A stretch of DNA of 64,000 nucleotides from UHGV virus genome UHGV-0141727, one strand, 5' to 3'. The stretch comes from a virus. The notes beneath the pieces are model-generated. The model was not told where the DNA came from. It searched no databases and was given only the letters and a program-made list of their open reading frames with translations. This document shows, piece by piece, positions 2,755-59,995 of the stretch (position 1 is the stretch's first letter; the number at the start of each line of letters is the position of its first letter). Both the position numbers and the translations under genes were made by a program.

Positions 2755-2787
2755 TGATTAGAAACATCAATTTAATTTTCTAACACA
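2755..2787. promoter_or_regulatory. operator-like inverted repeat ATTAGAAA-N12-TTTCTAAC upstream of immunity-like module 1
   Basis: member of recurring TGTTAGAAAA/TTTTCTAACA motif family seen at 7 sites. Confidence 0.4.
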
Positions 2788-3896: not shown

Positions 3897-4000
3897 GCAG
3901 TCGCTACCGGAGCAGTGACCGCGATCCTACTCGATCACGTGCCGTCGGATCAACAGTGTATAAAAACACACTGTGTTAGAAAATTAAGCTAGCTTTTAGC

Positions 4001-42123: not shown

Positions 42124-42165
42124 AAACTGTGTTAGAAAATAAAACTCAATTATCTAACACAGTTT
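42124..42165. promoter_or_regulatory. perfect 13-bp inverted repeat AAACTGTGTTAGA/TCTAACACAGTTT operator-like site upstream of rdgC operon
   Basis: member of TGTTAGAA motif family. Confidence 0.45.
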
Positions 42166-46080: not shown

Positions 46081-46082
46081 CA

Positions 46083-46104
46083 AAGCCCACCTTAAGGTGG
46101 GCTT
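46083..46104. terminator. hairpin AAGCCCACC/GGTGGGCTT directly after 45541..46080
   Basis: 9-bp stem; T-tract on minus side. Confidence 0.45.
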
Positions 46105-46305
46105 CGCCAGAAATTATTTTCTGGTATTCAGAACGCCATTACCGGACTTTGCCTTGACCAAGTATCACAACTGGTTTGACCTGTTATGATAGCTGGTTGC
46201 GGGATGTCTGAATTTCTTCAGTCTGCTGCATCCTCGAAGGTTTGGTTCAACATGTACCATTCCTTCACCGTCATAATAGTGTACTATTCACGTCCTTGCA
46301 AACAC

Positions 46306-47925: not shown

Positions 47926-48207
47926 TTATGCGTGGGAAAATAATGGACGGATGTTTGGGCGAGCGGTTTGCGAAGCAACCCAAAGCTCATACTGGGATTG
48001 CATACCGGTCCACATTTCGGCACTGGTTCCAAGAGCGGACTCCAGACGAAGTGCCATATCAGCAGAAATACCTGTTTTTTCGTTCAGAATTCGGGAAAGT
48101 GCCGTGCGAGTAATGCCTAATGCAGCAGCTGCGTCTGTGACTGACATGTCTCCCAAATATTCACGAAGAACCGCGCCTGGATGCGCGGGATTATGCATAC
48201 GACTCAT
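47926..48207 (-). CDS. HigA/VapI-like HTH antitoxin
   Basis: 93-aa [14 protein letters not shown]...DMALRL. Confidence 0.55.
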
Positions 48208-48503
48208 ATGTGGAAAGCAACCCGTTTACCGGTTGGCAATTCAACGTCCAGACTCAACTTTCCACCCATAGCCTCAACGTAACGTTTAAGCGTTGCTACT
48301 TTCAAGTCATTGCCTCGTTGTTCAAGTTTTGTGATGGCTGGTTGACTAATTCCCATCGCATCGGCAACTGTTTTTTGTGATAACTGAAGCTCCTCTCTCA
48401 ACATCTGCAATCCGACTTCCAGAATCATTTCATCAGCCTGCTCTTTGATACGAGCTTGGCTTTCAGGGGATTGCGCAGCAATAACTTCTCTTAGAGTTCT
48501 CAT
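48204..48503 (-). CDS. XRE-type HTH antitoxin-like protein
   Basis: 99-aa ORF with HTH, immediately downstream of RelE/HigB-like gene. Confidence 0.5.
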
Positions 48504-48850
48504 TATTTTTTCTCAAGTTCTGCAAGATGGTTGGAAAATTCGTCGTCTGCAATCCGTATCATTCTTTCGTAGAACTTTTTATCGTTACTCTTATCTCCGG
48601 CGCACAGGATTATGGCTTGCCTTACCGGATCAAATGCGAAGAATGCTCTGATAGGGCGACCAGCGTACTGAATCCGTAACTCCTTCATGTTTTTATGGCG
48701 TGAGCCTTTAACTGTGTCGGCATATGGCCTTGATAATGAAGGGCCATATGTTTCCAGATTGATCAGGTCAACCAGGATTTTTTCTTTTAATGCAGGTTCC
48801 TGTTCCTGGAACCATTCATCAAAAATTTTTCCAAAATAAATTTGCCACAT
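48503..48850 (-). CDS. RelE/HigB-like addiction-module toxin
   Basis: 115-aa ORF; ELRI...GDKS motif pattern; precedes two HTH genes. Confidence 0.5.
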   Translation of the reverse strand: MWQIYFGKIFDEWFQEQEPALKEKILVDLINLETYGPSLSRPYADTVKGSRHKNMKELRIQYAGRPIRAFFAFDPVRQAIILCAGDKSNDKKFYERMIRIADDEFSNHLAELEKK

Positions 48851-48885
48851 AGTTATTCAAAATCCTTTTTAATAAACTACATGTT

Positions 48886-48922
48886 ATAAACTACAGGTTA
48901 TATCATATAACCTGTAGTTTAT
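48886..48922. promoter_or_regulatory. 37-bp perfect palindrome in promoter region of toxin-antitoxin operon (candidate operator)
   Basis: ATAAACTACAGGTTATAT C ATATAACCTGTAGTTTAT. Confidence 0.5.
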
Positions 48923-48955
48923 ATTTTCAAGGCCATTTTTTATTCGATTTAGCAT

Positions 48956-49609
48956 TTAAAGTATCACGGTATCCTCATCAACTTCTTTCCCTGCCAGTGA
49001 CTTTGGCTGGGAGGCTGCTGCTTTAACCTTCTCATGCCCAATAATGGACAGGAACGAGGCCATTATCCCTGCTTTGTTTTCTTTCTCTACCGCTCCTGTC
49101 ATTTGTTTCAGGTAATCCGCGCTGGCAACATTGTGGTATACCGTTGCATAGCAGCACAGAATCATCAGGATGTGCTCTGGTCGGATATCTTGCCAGTTAA
49201 CTCGATAAACCTCTTCACCGTTGCCGTTGTATTCGGTATCGACGATAGAGTCGGGGATCTCAAATGCCCCTTTGTTCTTGTCAGGCAGGGATAGCAGCCT
49301 TTGTAGTTTCAGCTCCCGGTATCTTTCCATGCCGACAATGATCGCCGCTCTGCCGTCGGCGTGCCGTGTTTTTAATGTTACCTGACTGGCACCTGTACCG
49401 GCTGAAATGGTTGGCGTGATTTCGTCAACCAGCACCTTAAATTCACTTTTACGCAGCTCGGCAATTGCTGGTGGAATTTTTCGTTTTTGTTCAATAGCAG
49501 ATGCAGGGAGCGGCTTTACTTTGTCAATTACAAGCGCGCCGTCTTTCAGGACTGCCGTAGCCATCAGCGGCTTGTTAGTCGAAAGGCTGAATATTGCGAT
49601 CTTTTGCAT
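48956..49609 (-). CDS. hypothetical protein
   Basis: ORF 217 aa. Confidence 0.3.
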   Translation of the reverse strand: MQKIAIFSLSTNKPLMATAVLKDGALVIDKVKPLPASAIEQKRKIPPAIAELRKSEFKVLVDEITPTISAGTGASQVTLKTRHADGRAAIIVGMERYRELKLQRLLSLPDKNKGAFEIPDSIVDTEYNGNGEEVYRVNWQDIRPEHILMILCCYATVYHNVASADYLKQMTGAVEKENKAGIMASFLSIIGHEKVKAAASQPKSLAGKEVDEDTVIL

Positions 49610-51285: not shown

Positions 51286-52227
51286 TTAACTAATAATCCA
51301 GTCGGTTGCTGCTACATCTTCTGGCTGCAAATCAATCGCACAGATCTTACCGTCGCGAATGGTGCGCCAGTTTTTCCGTGAGCCTCTTTCGGGCCATACC
51401 CAGACACTTTCAGGCCAGGATGCTCGACGGCATACGGTTGCATACCCTGTTTTAATCTTCTCTCTGGCGGTATGCAACGACAGGTTTGCCTTTGGACTTT
51501 CAGGCACAGGATGGTGAATGGCCTGAAATAGCCCCATCTTGGGATGATACCAGCGTTTGTTACGTGGTTCTGCCTCCGACATAACCTGCTTAAAGGCTTT
51601 CCGGAAGGGGGCCAGGGCCACAATGGAACGTCGCGCAAGCAAACCGTCGGGAGTTAAAAACTCATGCGTATCAGTGGGTATCCGGTAAGCGTTGACCAGG
51701 TTACGGCATTTGGCTTCAGTCAGGCCACATTTCGCCGCCAACTGGCGGTAGCCAATGTAGCCTTCCGGAATATTGCCTTTCTTGATCTGCTCGACGGTTT
51801 CAGCGACTTTGGACACTTGTGCCGATACTTCGGCTACCTGGGCATTAACGGCGTTGATCCGGCGTTCATGCTCAAGATGCATTTGCGCCATTTCAGCCAG
51901 AATTTCGGCTTTTGATTTTAACTGTGCCCGGGCATTCTCCAGTTCGCGCCAGCGGTCCACCAGCCGGGCGGTGAATTCGGGAGAGAGCTGCGCGACGACA
52001 ATAATGCTGTCTCGTTTGCCTTGCTCGCCTTCAAAGACATAGACCGGATCTTTGACAACCTTCCCTAAGTTATTGATTCTTTCGACGAACTCATTTTGAG
52101 TTTCTCGGATGACACCGCTCGCCATCATATTGCGAATGGTACGTAAAACGTTGCCATGACGACTACCAACTAACTCTGCAATATCCAGGCTATTCATTGT
52201 AGCTTTTTGGGTGATAGACAGATTCAT
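51286..52227 (-). CDS. Rha-family antirepressor (Ant-like), intact copy
   Basis: 313-aa ORF with Rha N-terminal motif; paralog of frameshifted 1299..2203. Confidence 0.65.
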   Translation of the reverse strand: MNLSITQKATMNSLDIAELVGSRHGNVLRTIRNMMASGVIRETQNEFVERINNLGKVVKDPVYVFEGEQGKRDSIIVVAQLSPEFTARLVDRWRELENARAQLKSKAEILAEMAQMHLEHERRINAVNAQVAEVSAQVSKVAETVEQIKKGNIPEGYIGYRQLAAKCGLTEAKCRNLVNAYRIPTDTHEFLTPDGLLARRSIVALAPFRKAFKQVMSEAEPRNKRWYHPKMGLFQAIHHPVPESPKANLSLHTAREKIKTGYATVCRRASWPESVWVWPERGSRKNWRTIRDGKICAIDLQPEDVAATDWIIS

Positions 52228-52442
52228 CAGTGCACCTCCACGCAGTTCATTGGTAGATTCCAGTAATTGAGGATCTCCATCGCATCAAGAGTGAAGCGTG
52301 CGGCAAAAATGCAGGGTTCTTCGGGAAGGTATGAGCGCGCCTCTGCTTCGGTAGCAGCCATTACGCAGATATAGAGGTGTTTTTGGCAGGAATAGAAACG
52401 CCAGATAAATTCAGAATGAGTTGGGGTAGGGATAGTAGCCAT
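52227..52442 (-). CDS. icd: Icd-like host cell division inhibitor
   Basis: 71-aa ORF, AAGGAGG RBS, EFIWRFYSCQKH motif; precedes ant. Confidence 0.6.
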   Translation of the reverse strand: MATIPTPTHSEFIWRFYSCQKHLYICVMAATEAEARSYLPEEPCIFAARFTLDAMEILNYWNLPMNCVEVH

Positions 52443-52459
52443 ATTGGCAGCCTCCTTTG

Positions 52460-52620
52460 ACTAAGTTAAGGAGCTACCGCGTGAGGTTCCAATCTCAATG
52501 GCGGTAGCACTGACTGGGTTGGAACTACCGGCGTCAAAGGGAACCGGCCTGCCTTTCGGCAGCCCAGCCAGCACTACCATTGATCTCTGAGCTAAACGCT
52601 ACGTATGGCTGTGCGATGGC
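52460..52620 (-). ncRNA. candidate c4-like antisense/leader RNA region upstream of icd (inference only)
   Basis: ORF-free structured region between a terminator and icd; position analogous to P1 c4. Confidence 0.2.
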
Positions 52621-52624
52621 ATGA

Positions 52625-52651
52625 CACAAAAAAAGACGCTTTCGGCGTCTG
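52625..52651 (-). terminator. intrinsic terminator AGACGC/GCGTCT plus T7 on minus strand
   Basis: hairpin immediately followed by TTTTTTTGTG. Confidence 0.55.
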
Positions 52652-52755
52652 TGTCGCCTTTGACATTATCCGGGGTTCCAATCCCGGCACCCGTTTTTCT
52701 AAGGTGCCGTAGAAATATACCCCACGATAATGCCAGGGCGCAACTGTGTGTTTTC

Positions 52756-52923
52756 TTATGCTTTTCTTTTCTTCTTTTGGGCTTGCTTGCAAGCGTAGGC
52801 CATTGCTTTAGCTTTCACTTCATCCAGCTTCCCGGTGATCACTTCTTTTCCAAGAGTGACAAACCAATCATAGCAACCGCCAGTGATGTTCTGGATTTGA
52901 AAGTTGAGGTAGCGAACGGTCAT
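52756..52923 (-). CDS. small basic protein (55 aa), not in supplied ORF track
   Basis: manual translation MTVRYLNFQIQNITGGCYDWFVTLGKEV...KKKRKA. Confidence 0.25.
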   Translation of the reverse strand: MTVRYLNFQIQNITGGCYDWFVTLGKEVITGKLDEVKAKAMAYACKQAQKKKRKA

Positions 52924-53254
52924 TTTGACACCCCCAGCGCGAGTAAAGAATGCAGATTATCGCGTGAGTGGCGGACAACGAGTGATGGGAAAAGACAGTA
53001 GCTGTTCATAGTGTAGTGACTCCTTGCTTTTGGAGCCGCCATCGACTGTTCCACGGTCTGGTGGCGGCGCAATAAAGGTTGGAACACCGTGAGTCAACGG
53101 GGGCTTTTCAGCCACCTATATTGCACCGCCATTGGTATGGCGGCGGCAATCATACGAAAAACCAAACGGTTTGTCTCAAAAAGTTGACCGGTGTACCAAT
53201 CGGTTGTGAATGTACAACGGTGAATTTCACAATTCAACTTAAAATGTTAGAAAA

Positions 53255-53830
53255 CTAATTTATTAATTCAGTCACCATCTGATACAACGTCATTTCATCG
53301 GCATTGTGCCGCCTGAAATCTGCTTTGCCGCCTATTTTTCCATCAGCATGAACAGGGACCAACCAGGGGTATTGCTCGCGTATCTCTGCTGGCGCTGCGT
53401 GTTGATGGTGCCATTTACACAAAGGGAGAACGTATTTATGCGCGTTCTCTGCCGTTCTCCCGAAGATGTGGTGCAGGGATACCACAGGGCTATGCTGTCC
53501 GTGCATATGGCAGGCAATGCAGGGGAGAGCACCGATGGCAGTTTGTATCCGGCGCTCATCTGCTGTGAGCGTTCTGCCTTTCAGGCCACGTGACGTGCGC
53601 GTTTTTTTGACTGGAGCAGAAGCGGCCTTCTCTTTTCTTCGCTGTTCATATTGCTTCGCTTTTTCAATTTTCTTTTGCCGATATTCAGGCGATGCAGCCT
53701 TTTCTCGCGCACGCTGCTGCTGGCGTTGAGCTTGCTGAAGACGCTTTGCCCTTTGTTCCTCCCGCCATTTCGGATCAGCCAGTTTTTTCAGGGCTTTTTG
53801 CGTCTGTTTCTCCCAATAGCTTTGCTTCAT
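53255..53830 (-). CDS. Ref-like HNH-type nuclease (P1 recombination enhancement function-like)
   Basis: ORF 53255..53872; Lys/Arg/Gln-rich N-terminus, C-terminal Cys/His cluster CIACHMHG...HHIFG...PLCKWHH. Confidence 0.45.
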   Translation of the reverse strand: MKQSYWEKQTQKALKKLADPKWREEQRAKRLQQAQRQQQRAREKAASPEYRQKKIEKAKQYEQRRKEKAASAPVKKTRTSRGLKGRTLTADERRIQTAIGALPCIACHMHGQHSPVVSLHHIFGRTAENAHKYVLPLCKWHHQHAAPAEIREQYPWLVPVHADGKIGGKADFRRHNADEMTLYQMVTELIN

Positions 53831-53872
53831 AGAAATACCCGGTTTGTCTACATCGCCGCTATGGTTGATCAA

Positions 53873-53911
53873 ATGTGTTAGAAAATCAAAATTGATTTTC
53901 TAACACAAAAT
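53873..53911. promoter_or_regulatory. near-perfect 34-bp palindrome TGTGTTAGAAAATCAA AA TTGATTTTCTAACACA in divergent promoter region
   Basis: strongest member of the recurring operator-like motif family. Confidence 0.5.
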
Positions 53912-53946
53912 GAAGATACTTTTTTCGGACGCTATATCAGGAGGTC

Positions 53947-54102
53947 ATGATGCTTGTCGCAATAAGTGCAATCCACCAGCAATCCGGTACAGAAATTGGG
54001 TTGCTATATGCCCTGTTTTTCACTGTCCTGGCGTTGTTTGAGCTGGGTATTGAACTCTTTGCTCTCATTAACTTTTGCGTAACGTTCCTGGGGAAACTTT
54101 GA
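53947..54102 (+). CDS. small hydrophobic peptide (51 aa), not in supplied ORF track
   Basis: AGGAGG RBS; MMLVAISAIHQQSGTEIGLLYALFFTVLALFELGIELFALINFCVTFLGKL; stop overlaps next start (TGATG). Confidence 0.35.
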   Translation: MMLVAISAIHQQSGTEIGLLYALFFTVLALFELGIELFALINFCVTFLGKL

Positions 54103-54713
54103 TGGCTATACGCATTATGAAAATTTACATCGCGGGTCCGATGACTGGTTATCCCGACTACAACCGCACAGCGTTTTTTTCGAAAGCAAAAGAGCTGATG
54201 GAGGAAGGGCATATTGTTCTGAATCCGGCGCTGTTACCTGCTGGCCTCTGCCAGAGCGAATACATGGATATTTGCCTTGCTATGGTGCGTTCGGCTAATG
54301 CGGTCTATTTGCTCAAGGGGTGGGAGGAATCAGTTGGCGCTCGTGCAGAGCACGAGCTGGCTCAAAAGCTGGGGCTGAATGTAATTTATGAGTCACCAAC
54401 CAACATTGAATGCCAGGTTGCTCCGCATATTTACCGGGAACTGGTCAATGCACTGCGTGATATCGCTGCTGTATATCACGGCACAGAACAGCTTCGTGAG
54501 CGTTTAGCCCATACCATTTCCTATTACCTGTCTGCATCTCATGAGCACAAGCTCCGTCAGAAGGTAATGATCAAATTTATCATGAGGTTATCGAAATCCC
54601 TGGCAAACGCCGATCCAAAGAATCCATTACCGAAAGTGGCAATGAATTACCTGAAGTCCTGCAACATTGTTTCTGAAGATGGCGTTCTTTTGGTTAGAAG
54701 GAGTTCTGCGTGA
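54102..54713 (+). CDS. DUF4406-like (nucleoside 2-deoxyribosyltransferase-like fold) protein with extra C-terminal region
   Basis: ORF 54075..54713; MKIYIAGPMTGYPDYN N-terminal signature. Confidence 0.5.
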   Translation: MAIRIMKIYIAGPMTGYPDYNRTAFFSKAKELMEEGHIVLNPALLPAGLCQSEYMDICLAMVRSANAVYLLKGWEESVGARAEHELAQKLGLNVIYESPTNIECQVAPHIYRELVNALRDIAAVYHGTEQLRERLAHTISYYLSASHEHKLRQKVMIKFIMRLSKSLANADPKNPLPKVAMNYLKSCNIVSEDGVLLVRRSSA

Positions 54714-55027
54714 GCTGGCGGGGATGGGGAAGGGCAGAAATCATGATACTCCGCCAGTGCGCCGGGACTATGACAGTCGAGGGTATTGGGAGACTGATCG
54801 GGCGTACCGGTGGTGCTGTCAGGACTAAAGCGCGGCAATTGCGGATCAGCATGATTCTGAAAGGTGACTTTCACCAGTCAGCCAAATACCGGCAGAGCGA
54901 TATAGAGCTGGCGCGGCAGCTTCATCAGTGTGGCGTTCCCCGCCGTGAGATCGCAGAAAAACTCGAAATGCCCTTGGGCATGATTAATCAGTACGTTTAT
55001 TTCGAAAGGAGAGTGCATGAAGTCTGA
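54710..55027 (+). CDS. putative HTH regulator
   Basis: 105-aa ORF, GTG start with AAGGAG RBS; HTH-like ELARQLHQCGVPRREIAEKL. Confidence 0.35.
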   Translation: MSWRGWGRAEIMILRQCAGTMTVEGIGRLIGRTGGAVRTKARQLRISMILKGDFHQSAKYRQSDIELARQLHQCGVPRREIAEKLEMPLGMINQYVYFERRVHEV

Positions 55028-58925: not shown

Positions 58926-58960
58926 GATGTTAGAATATTGATTTTAATTTTCTAACAGAT
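58926..58960. promoter_or_regulatory. operator-like inverted repeat TGTTAGAA-N14-TTCTAACA upstream of 59000 gene
   Basis: member of recurring motif family. Confidence 0.4.
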
Positions 58961-58999: not shown

Positions 59000-59995
59000 A
59001 TGAGTGCAATAATCACACCTCATTTCGTAAACGGAGCTGGTGTGGCTGTCTTTCCGGTAGACAAGCCCACCAGTAACTACATTGGCGCAGGTCGCCGTTT
59101 CATTATCTCTCCACTTCCGCGTGAACAGGCTGAAAACACGCCAGATGGCGTAGTGGATCTGAATTATTCGCTGGTTGCCAACCAGTCTCTGAAACCGTTT
59201 TTTCAAAGCGAGCGCGTATTTAACGCGTTGGGCGGTGAAGATTCGCTTGTTCATTGGGTAAGTTCCAATATCCACGATTGCCAGGCGCACGATAAGCGCG
59301 ATTGCAGCCACCAGCTAACCACTCATTTCTATAACGGCTCTGCCGTTCGCCTGTGCTGGAAGCATGATGCGGAATACATGATGAAGGGGTACAGCAAGCT
59401 GGACGACCAGTTATCCCTGAATCGTGCCAACTGGGTTATGAACTGGGCTGCGAGCGAGTTAAAACTACCGCCAGAACGCGATCTGAGCATGGTTGAACTC
59501 ACTTTTTGGGCCATTCGCCGAAATCTTAAAGACGAGCTGCCAGATGAAGCCGGTCGCATTGCATTTTGTCAGCCAAAACAGGAAATCCCTACCGGCACAC
59601 TGAAAGAATCGGATATCACCTGGGAGCACAGCACCCGTGAGCTGGTGGACATAACCGCAGAGCAGATCGTCAACCTGTCTGTAGATGAGGATTCCGGCCT
59701 GCTGTATATGCGCCGACCAAAAGCGGTTCTCGGTAAAAGCCCGACTTATCTCCGGTTTGTGATTTCTCGTCCGTGCATCGGATGCGGTGGCAAAGTTAAT
59801 CACCCGTTCATGTACCGCGCCCGCTCGTTAAACGAACACGATCGCTGGGCCGTTCCTCTTTGCGATGAATGCGCCAGAAGCGCAGAAAACGATGTCCGTG
59901 CATGGGAAAAAGCACATGGCATACGCCTTTACGTAGCCGCTAACCAGCTTTTCGACTTCGCCATCGAGCGCGGAGTGATCACGTTCAATAACTGA
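59000..59995 (+). CDS. hypothetical protein with C-terminal Ref-like Cys/His cluster
   Basis: 331-aa ORF; PCIGCGG...H...VPLCDEC resembles the C-terminus of 53255..53830. Confidence 0.35.
   Translation: MSAIITPHFVNGAGVAVFPVDKPTSNYIGAGRRFIISPLPREQAENTPDGVVDLNYSLVANQSLKPFFQSERVFNALGGEDSLVHWVSSNIHDCQAHDKRDCSHQLTTHFYNGSAVRLCWKHDAEYMMKGYSKLDDQLSLNRANWVMNWAASELKLPPERDLSMVELTFWAIRRNLKDELPDEAGRIAFCQPKQEIPTGTLKESDITWEHSTRELVDITAEQIVNLSVDEDSGLLYMRRPKAVLGKSPTYLRFVISRPCIGCGGKVNHPFMYRARSLNEHDRWAVPLCDECARSAENDVRAWEKAHGIRLYVAANQLFDFAIERGVITFNN

Follow-up and report, generated by a model that had tools for sequence, protein, structure and literature searches.

The DNA analysed here, a window of 64 kb, is part of a D6-like phage-plasmid that is distantly related to P1. 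Over 1.3 kb around the gene ref, the window shares 86% identity with Escherichia phage D6, itself a plasmid prophage related to P1, and 96-98.5% with ~11 plasmids of E. coli and E. marmotae, each ~90 kb in size. In total, 115 plasmids matched the ref region, nearly all of them non-mobilizable and hosted by Escherichia, Salmonella or Shigella. The order of the genes is that of D6, with Ant, an Icd-like protein, two small ORFs and Ref encoded on the minus strand, and a tiny ORF, the DUF4406 gene and a long early operon on the plus strand (Table 1). The divergent arrangement described in the initial annotation was recovered, ref being read leftward and the 51-aa ORF, followed by the DUF4406 gene, rightward. 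Likewise, ref lies upstream of a second immunity-like module as proposed there, with the isrK-like RNA, the C4 RNA, the icd-like gene and ant following downstream on the same strand. The window holds two C4 antisense RNA modules and also an sroH-like RNA.

The neighbourhood differs from that of P1, where ref is flanked by c8 and mat; here, the neighbours are the divergent DUF4406 operon and the second c4-icd-ant module. In place of mat, which follows ref in P1, two small ORFs and then the second isrK/C4-icd-ant module are found. No convincing terminator was detected after ref, the consensus scan of 52900-54150 giving only weak terminator-like sites; the RNA fold of the 123 nt 3' of ref was not significant (z = 0.54), and a clear terminator is therefore not assigned to this stretch.

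Table 1. Genes, RNAs, candidate promoters and operator-like sites of the ref locus and related sites elsewhere in the 64-kb window.
Feature	Coordinates	Strand	Basis or remark
ref, Ref family RecA-dependent HNH nuclease (by orthology), 191 aa	53255-53830	-	stop codon TAG at 53255-53257; Pfam, PDB, tblastn
Ref N-terminal basic segment, aa 1-84	53579-53830	-	putative DNA-binding tail, by analogy with P1 Ref
Ref C-terminal HNH (His-Me finger) nuclease domain, aa 85-191	53258-53578	-	Pfam and invariant Cys/His
34-bp palindrome (16 + 2 + 16)	53874-53907		read as bivalent operator; ref/rightward-operon divergent control region
Left half-site TGTGTTAGAAAATCAA	53874-53889	+	one mismatch to family consensus; PWM 25.9 bits
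Right half-site TGTGTTAGAAAATCAA	53892-53907	-	motif search; PWM 25.9 bits
Half-site AATGTTAGAAAACTAA overlapping the ref stop codon	53243-53258	+	3 mismatches; PWM 22.9 bits
Putative leftward promoter Pref	53861-53889	-	-35 TTGATT 53884-53889, 17-nt spacer, -10 AACCAT 53861-53866; hand-read, weak
Putative rightward promoter	53892-53920	+	-35 TTGATT 53892-53897, 17-nt spacer, -10 GATACT 53915-53920; hand-read
51-aa hydrophobic ORF	53947-54102	+	first gene of rightward operon; ORF list, D6 orf88/orf89 equivalents, PGAP
DUF4406 gene	54102-54713	+	second gene of rightward operon; ORF list, D6 orf88/orf89 equivalents, PGAP
Small HTH 'DNA-binding protein' gene	54743-55027		rightward operon
Second immI-like module	51286-52707	-	downstream of ref; isrK-like RNA, C4 antisense RNA, icd-like, ant
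isrK-like RNA	52629-52707	-	Rfam (module matches: RF01394 62.7 bits, RF01695 77.1 bits)
C4 antisense RNA	52497-52584	-	Rfam (module matches: RF01394 62.7 bits, RF01695 77.1 bits)
icd-like gene	52227-52442	-	ORF list; D6 annotates Icd-like protein
ant gene	51286-52227	-	ORF list; D6 annotates Ant protein
16+2+16 pair upstream of ref	53874-53907		both arms perfect; summed PWM 51.8 bits
16+2+16 pair just upstream of hrdC homolog	42128-42161		summed PWM 44.7 bits
16+2+16 pair upstream of DUF968/pdcB-like gene	58926-58959		left arm weak
Motif copy before first c4 module (c4-icd-ant)	2772-2787		
Motif copy before repL	3972-3987		

Read from a TTG, the ORF at ref spans 53255-53872 on the minus strand (205 aa), but translation probably starts at the ATG at 53830 and yields 191 aa. 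This ATG is the start set by PGAP in the 98.5%-identical plasmid pMUB-MIN14-1, and the equivalent start is annotated in D6. The gene is already known, being annotated and named in the GenBank record of D6 and in RefSeq.

Judged by its sequence, the protein is a clear ortholog of P1 Ref. The match to the Pfam family PF16786 (RecA_dep_nuc) had an E-value of 6.1e-36 and a score of 123.1 bits (cut-off 26.9), covering profile positions 2-102 of 103, and the alignment with the sequence of the P1 Ref crystal structure (PDB 3PLW; 3.6e-52) ran through the whole nuclease domain. By tblastn, amino acid identity was 92.1% to D6 Ref and 56.6% to P1 Ref over aa 47-191, with weaker relatives in P7, SJ46, RCS47 and two Pseudomonas phages. 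The RefSeq 'Ref family recombination enhancement nuclease' of pMUB-MIN14-1, a D6-like plasmid, is identical at 189 of 191 positions (99%), and both this protein and D6 Ref (orf87, YP_009914764; 92%) share neighbours and orientation with the gene studied here. The initial description of a Ref-like HNH protein is thus supported by the HMM, by the 3PLW sequence and by the existing D6 and RefSeq annotation.

Alignment of five Ref proteins (those of the window, D6, two plasmids and P1) revealed C104, C107, H110, H120, H121, H131, C138, H141, H142 and H161 to be invariant. P1 H134 and H153 find their counterparts in H142 and H161, so that the Cys/His residues do match active-site residues of P1 Ref, as the original assignment had called for; the H120/H121 pair, corresponding to P1 H112/H113, is invariant as well. 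In P1 Ref, H134 and H153, two of the three active-site histidines of the HNH core, are Zn2+ ligands, and the H153A or H134A/H153A exchanges cripple the nuclease (PMC4713147, PMC3973344). Two Zn2+ ions are bound by P1 Ref (PMC3973344), and a zinc knuckle precedes the beta-hairpin (PMC5714182). The invariant CxxC...C..H set, made up of C104, C107, C138 and H141 (C96, C99, C130 and H133 in P1), would be the obvious second, structural zinc site of the protein.

The two-domain build of P1 Ref is shared, including the Zn-ligand histidines, the CxxC...C..H cluster and a highly basic N-terminal tail. Overall identity to P1 Ref is 53%, and the tail aligns poorly and is ~8 residues longer here. The Lys/Arg/Gln-rich N-terminus noticed initially is evident from residues 1-84, which contain 28 K/R, 9 D/E and 13 Q and are devoid of Cys and His; the C-terminal Cys/His cluster is equally plain, with 3 Cys and 11 His in residues 85-191. 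In charge, the tail resembles that of P1 Ref, where 25 positive and 9 negative residues are found in 76 aa (PMC4330346) and where the N-terminal region lacks order in the crystal and is required to bind DNA (PMC4330346, PMC3973344). For the protein of the window, disorder had been proposed on composition only, whereas a single-sequence AlphaFold2 model drew residues 5-71 as confident helices (pLDDT >88). Residues 78-191 were modelled with pLDDT <50, and the beta-beta-alpha-metal fold that the C-terminal domain would adopt is deduced solely from its ~57% identity to 3PLW. RecA dependence of the nuclease would follow from orthology.

Upstream of ref, 44 bp from the ATG, lies a 34-bp palindrome, the two arms of which comprise 16 nt each and are 100% complementary around a centre of 2 nt (AA); compared with its own reverse complement, the 34-mer differs at the two centre positions only. 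When the window was resampled 20 times with a first-order Markov model, perfect inverted-repeat arms (spacer <=4 nt) reached no more than 8-11 nt versus the 16 nt observed. The near-perfect palindrome that had been reported is thus real, with two perfect 16-nt arms far beyond chance. Inspection by eye led us to reject both a LexA box (CTG-N10-CAG) and a CRP site (TGTGA-N6-TCACA) at this position. A larger perfect palindrome of 39 bp, located at 48885-48923 before a toxin-antitoxin-like operon, is unrelated to that of ref.

Both arms belong to a family of asymmetric 16-mers with the consensus TGTGTTAGAAAATTAA, which was built from 26 sites of the window and D6 and the core of which, TGTTAGAAAA, is nearly invariant. 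Counting matches to this consensus with up to 3 mismatches in comparison with shuffles, nine were found in the window versus 0.64 expected (0/100 shuffles reached nine). The two halves of D6 gave 8 versus 0.74 and 9 versus 0.50 expected, and the two halves of the E. fergusonii plasmid 7 versus 1.12 and 7 versus 1.04, none of these four counts being reached by a shuffle. The totals thus stand at 17 copies in D6, 14 in the E. fergusonii relative and nine strong half-sites in the window, and the operator-family motif postulated at the outset is real. Most copies are single and asymmetric, standing alone at five or more further loci of the window. In D6 and the E. fergusonii plasmid, copies are also present 15 bp before the c1 start. 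The half-site overlapping the ref stop codon is conserved in D6 and in the E. fergusonii plasmid.

The inverted 16+2+16 layout was seen at three places in the window (Table 1), and also upstream of hrdC in D6 and E. fergusonii. That the ref site is the strongest copy of the motif, as had been stated, is correct when it is taken as a pair, since it is the only perfect two-armed copy and exceeds the hrdC pair in summed PWM score (51.8 versus 44.7 bits). Taken as a single 16-mer, it is surpassed by the sites at 2772 and 3972, which score 27.5 bits each versus 25.9 bits per ref arm.

The D6 GenBank record carries no annotated operator features. In the P1 record, C1 operators are annotated ahead of c1 (Oc1ab and others), c4 (Oc4), kilA-repL (OrepL) and uhr-hrdC-dmt (Odmt), as well as at ref, where Oref is situated inside the promoter P2ref and Omat lies across the ref stop codon. 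The motif of the D6 family occupies these same positions, namely c1, c4, repL, hrdC-dmt, the region upstream of ref and the ref stop. The suggested parallel to P1, in which ref is under repressor control, therefore holds by position, with motif copies matching the places of both Oref and Omat. A reading of 'Op2a,b' of P1 as a bipartite operator was discarded, given that the P1 record shows two separate monovalent operators, Oref and Omat.

The manner in which the sites are distributed also corresponds to P1, where C1 recognises 22 dispersed operators that share an asymmetric 17-bp consensus (PMC8546580). In both systems, asymmetric sites of ~16-17 bp are dispersed at the c1, c4, repL, dmt, ref and other promoters and form few inverted pairs, and ref is flanked by sites of the repressor-operator type upstream and on its stop codon. 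The predominance of single asymmetric copies fits the style of P1 C1 and would be unsuited to a symmetric dimer. On this positional and statistical evidence, we infer that C1 is the protein that binds the motif, and the palindrome is most likely a double site for the main, C1-type repressor of the prophage. The c1 gene itself is located outside the 64-kb window.

In sequence and geometry, the sites differ from those of P1. When TGTGTTAGAAAATTAA was compared with the P1 operator consensus ATTGCTCTAATAAATTT, at most 9 of 14-15 positions agreed, whichever orientation was used; 38% of shuffled consensuses do as well, and the similarity is thus not significant. Orienting the D6-type site on the P1 consensus, with a view to comparing the bivalent topology, gave a tie between the two orientations, neither of them significant. 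The D6-type motif is of a different specificity class from the P1 operator and therefore not a P1-immunity operator. Differing operator sequences are to be expected, because D6 C1 is only a distant homolog of P1 C1, with 21% identity over 240 aa (E = 2e-8). The bivalent operators of P1 (Oc1ab, Obanab) consist of two 17-mers that overlap by 6 bp, so that 28 bp are covered and the centres are 11 bp apart; here, the 16-mers are separated by 2 bp, cover 34 bp and have their centres 18 bp apart. Oref of P1 is monovalent and not a palindrome and is positioned between the -35 and -10 elements of P2ref, in contrast to the bivalent palindrome of the D6-type locus.

Conservation of the ref-proximal intergenic region was assessed by aligning seven related elements. 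The only well-conserved block consists of CTATGrTTGATCrAA followed by the palindrome, both flanks being divergent. The right arm is conserved in all seven aligned relatives except for one position in the pair from E. fergusonii and S. dysenteriae. The left arm is perfect in the clade of the window (the ~11 plasmids mentioned above) and in the E. fergusonii/S. dysenteriae clade, whereas in D6 and many close relatives, which make up the majority D6 clade and include most D6-like plasmids, it is degenerate (ATGATTAGATATTCAA; 10/16 positions matched). Bivalency is therefore not essential for control of ref. In the E. fergusonii/S. dysenteriae clade, the same A-to-T change has occurred in both arms, keeping the symmetry perfect. 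A lineage-wide shift in operator specificity was considered as the cause and rejected, since position 12 of the motif is A in seven and T in seven of the 14 sites of the E. fergusonii plasmid. Where single sites vary so freely between A and T, a matching change in the two arms calls for no particular cause.

A consensus scan of 52900-54150 (at least 9/12 matches) yielded no sigma-70 promoter in the intergenic region upstream of ref. The two promoters listed in Table 1 were read by hand and score 7-8 of 12 only, below the threshold of that scan. Their candidate -35 hexamers coincide with the operator, as the sequence TTGATT forms the inner end of each palindrome arm. Both hexamer positions of Pref fall within the conserved block CTATGrTTGATC...AwTCAA, with AATCAT as the -10 element in five of seven relatives. 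Equivalents of the rightward promoter read TTGATT-16-TAATAT in D6 and TTGAAT-17-TAGTCT in E. fergusonii. On this arrangement, we propose a pair of weak sigma-70 promoters placed back to back, each taking its -35 hexamer from one operator arm. The TTG at 53872 would then lie outside the mRNA, in agreement with translation of ref from the ATG at 53830. The putative Pref spacer also contains an invariant GATC at 53867-53870; Dam methylation sites are annotated in the kilA regulatory region of the P1 record, and Dam sensitivity of Pref is conceivable.

Taken together as one joint reading, a Ref gene and a bivalent C1-type operator placed over two back-to-back promoters, this interpretation is one we hold with good confidence. 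The C1-type repressor of the family would recognise the 16-bp site at about ten dispersed promoters. At the palindrome, the inner TTGATT ends would serve as -35 elements, leftward for ref and rightward for the DUF4406 early operon, and since the arms supply both -35 elements, a repressor bound there would block both promoters and keep ref and the rightward operon silent in the lysogen, the palindrome itself remaining untranscribed. Loss of the repressor, for instance through the Ant antirepressors, would turn both promoters on. The Ref protein then made would, by homology, bind DNA through its basic N-terminal ~84 residues and cut it with the zinc-containing HNH domain only at sites bound by host RecA, such as single-strand filaments and D-loops.

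A more specific version of this scheme is put forward tentatively, as a possibility we regard as doubtful: a D6-type C1 repressor with its own 16-bp operator and the 34-bp bivalent layout would gate ref together with the early operon, and Pref may read on into isrK/c4-icd-ant. The lack of a convincing terminator after ref implies that Pref transcription may run into this second module. If this were true, an antirepressor operon gated by the repressor would begin with Ref, and RecA-directed cutting would be linked to a feed-forward loss of immunity.

Several other explanations have to be weighed against the C1-type reading. Exact two-fold symmetry is a hallmark of sites bound by dimeric HTH proteins, and a conventional dimeric regulator, such as the HTH protein encoded 0.8 kb downstream in the very operon that the palindrome would control, or a Cro-like protein, could be the ligand in place of a C1-type repressor; the preserved symmetry of the E. 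fergusonii relative, in which the A-to-T change affects both arms alike, is also what such a protein would lead one to expect. We nevertheless consider this unlikely, given that single, non-palindromic copies of the motif are present at five or more other loci of the window and before c1 in D6 and E. fergusonii, for which a symmetric dimer would have no need, that D6 has a degenerate left arm, and that the motif positions coincide with the C1 regulon of P1. The palindrome might also act as a nucleic acid structure instead of a protein operator, that is, as a hairpin or cruciform functioning as attenuator, terminator, processing signal or replication signal. A perfect 16-bp stem could form and its arms co-vary in one lineage, and attenuator control has reportedly been described for the P1 ref leader, as the title of a 1988 report by Windle et al. 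(cited in PMC4713147) would have it. Such a role is nonetheless very improbable. The site sits between two divergent start codons and is AT-rich, its centre is 2 nt long and no T-run follows it; the consensus scan called no terminator at the palindrome, which with the most plausible promoters would not be transcribed at all. In the D6 clade, 6/16 stem pairs are broken while one arm stays intact, and the free choice of A or T at position 12 (seven each) accounts for the symmetric change without any pairing constraint. As a further difference from P1, the locus has no counterpart of the GC-rich hairpin that immediately precedes the ref ATG there.

The protein, too, could be something other than Ref proper, namely a generic HNH endonuclease of the homing or packaging type that resembles Ref and acts independently of RecA. 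HNH domains are widespread in phages (PMC5714182), and RecA dependence is unreadable from sequence. Set against the ~57% identity to P1 Ref over the nuclease domain, the full-length coverage of a Ref-specific Pfam family, the two-part build with a basic tail as in Ref, and a P1-related genome in which this is the only annotated Ref homolog, this appears highly unlikely. The preferred interpretation accordingly remains that of a Ref ortholog whose gene would be controlled by a C1-type repressor.

At its 3' end, ref may be overlapped by a repressor-controlled antisense promoter (TTCACA, 19 nt, AAAACT). D6 reads TTTACA-19-AAAACT at the same place, resembling the TTGTCA-17-AAAACT found before D6 c1.

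During lytic growth of P1, Ref enhances recombination and strengthens the SOS response. The gene described here is an ordinary, already-named one under a familiar kind of control, and with the Ref family, its biochemistry and its repressor control established for P1, the significance goes little beyond a good annotation. What is added is modest: a working operator consensus, TGTGTTAGAAAATTAA, the bivalent geometry and a regulon map for D6-like phage-plasmids, which are frequently found in E. coli, Salmonella and Shigella. The map could help to predict immunity groups and the genes switched on at induction, Ref included. P1 Ref has been found to increase killing by ciprofloxacin (PMC4713147). 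Finally, a degraded D6-like remnant was observed beside the VIM carbapenemase gene of plasmid pSa1423-160k.

The GATC (Dam) site at 53867-53870, in the spacer of the putative leftward promoter of ref (the gene for the Ref-family HNH nuclease), was found to be invariant in 7/7 relatives aligned over this region. In the P1 record, Dam methylation sites are annotated in the kilA regulatory region. The ref palindrome (53874-53907), composed of two inverted copies of the 16-bp operator motif, is perfect in the Escherichia fergusonii plasmid NZ_CP099330 (locus L006, 1311-1344) and in a Shigella dysenteriae plasmid (L008), both revealing the identical A-to-T substitution in both arms (TGTGTTAGAAATTCAA). 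A shift in operator specificity was considered as a reading of this change in NZ_CP099330 and was rejected, because A and T are equal in number at motif position 12 among the other sites of that plasmid.

Besides the ref palindrome, two further inverted pairs of the operator motif in 16+2+16 arrangement were revealed, and their positions are given in the table together with those of the other features. At the hrdC position, P1 has only the monovalent C1 operator Odmt, whereas the window carries an inverted pair.

Coordinates of the features in the window
Feature	Position	Strand	Remark
C4 antisense RNA, first immI-like module	2475-2560	minus	
c4-a1b1 targets, first immI-like module	2628-2680	minus	
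Inverted operator-motif pair	42128-42161		12 bp upstream of hrdC (RdgC-family) homolog
sroH RNA	46082-46267	minus	Rfam, full-length match
Toxin/antitoxin-like operon	48503-48850, 48204-48503, 47926-48207	minus	
mat homolog	48956-49609		
C4 antisense RNA, second immI-like module	52497-52584	minus	
isrK-family RNA, second immI-like module	52629-52707	minus	Precedes C4
Inverted operator-motif pair	58926-58959		Left arm weak; upstream of DUF968/pdcB-like gene
DUF968/pdcB-like gene	59000-59995		

A half-site of the motif lies on the ref stop codon and is preceded by TTCACA, which is spaced 19 nt from AAAACT (53226-53258, plus strand, half-site included). The counterpart of this element in D6 reads TTTACA-19-AAAACT, and it resembles the putative D6 c1 promoter (TTGTCA-17-AAAACT), including the operator overlap. 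This element could be a repressor-controlled promoter directed antisense into ref.

The largest palindrome of the window, at 48885-48923, is perfect (19+1+19 bp; TATAAACTACAGGTTATAT c ATATAACCTGTAGTTTATA, with c as the central base) and is unrelated to the C1-type motif. It is located just downstream of the mat homolog and 35 bp upstream of the toxin/antitoxin-like operon, probably constituting the operator for autoregulation of the latter.

As in D6, two immI-like modules are present (2475-2680 and 52497-52707, both on the minus strand), each followed by icd-like and ant genes.

For the Lys/Arg/Gln-rich N-terminal tail of Ref (53579-53830, minus strand), a single-sequence AlphaFold2 model predicted three long helices (residues 5-18, 20-46 and 48-71; pLDDT ~90-96), whereas the equivalent segment of P1 Ref is reported to be disordered.

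The 169-kb Salmonella plasmid pSa1423-160k (NZ_MK356558) contains a decayed D6-like segment (L005, 2100-4050), where ref is without annotation, the DUF4406 gene is broken into two and the palindrome centre has a 1-bp deletion; a predicted VIM carbapenemase gene is located ~0.6 kb from this segment.

The sroH match is strong (113 bits versus a gathering score of 80) and includes a terminator-like 11+11 palindrome at 46083-46104.
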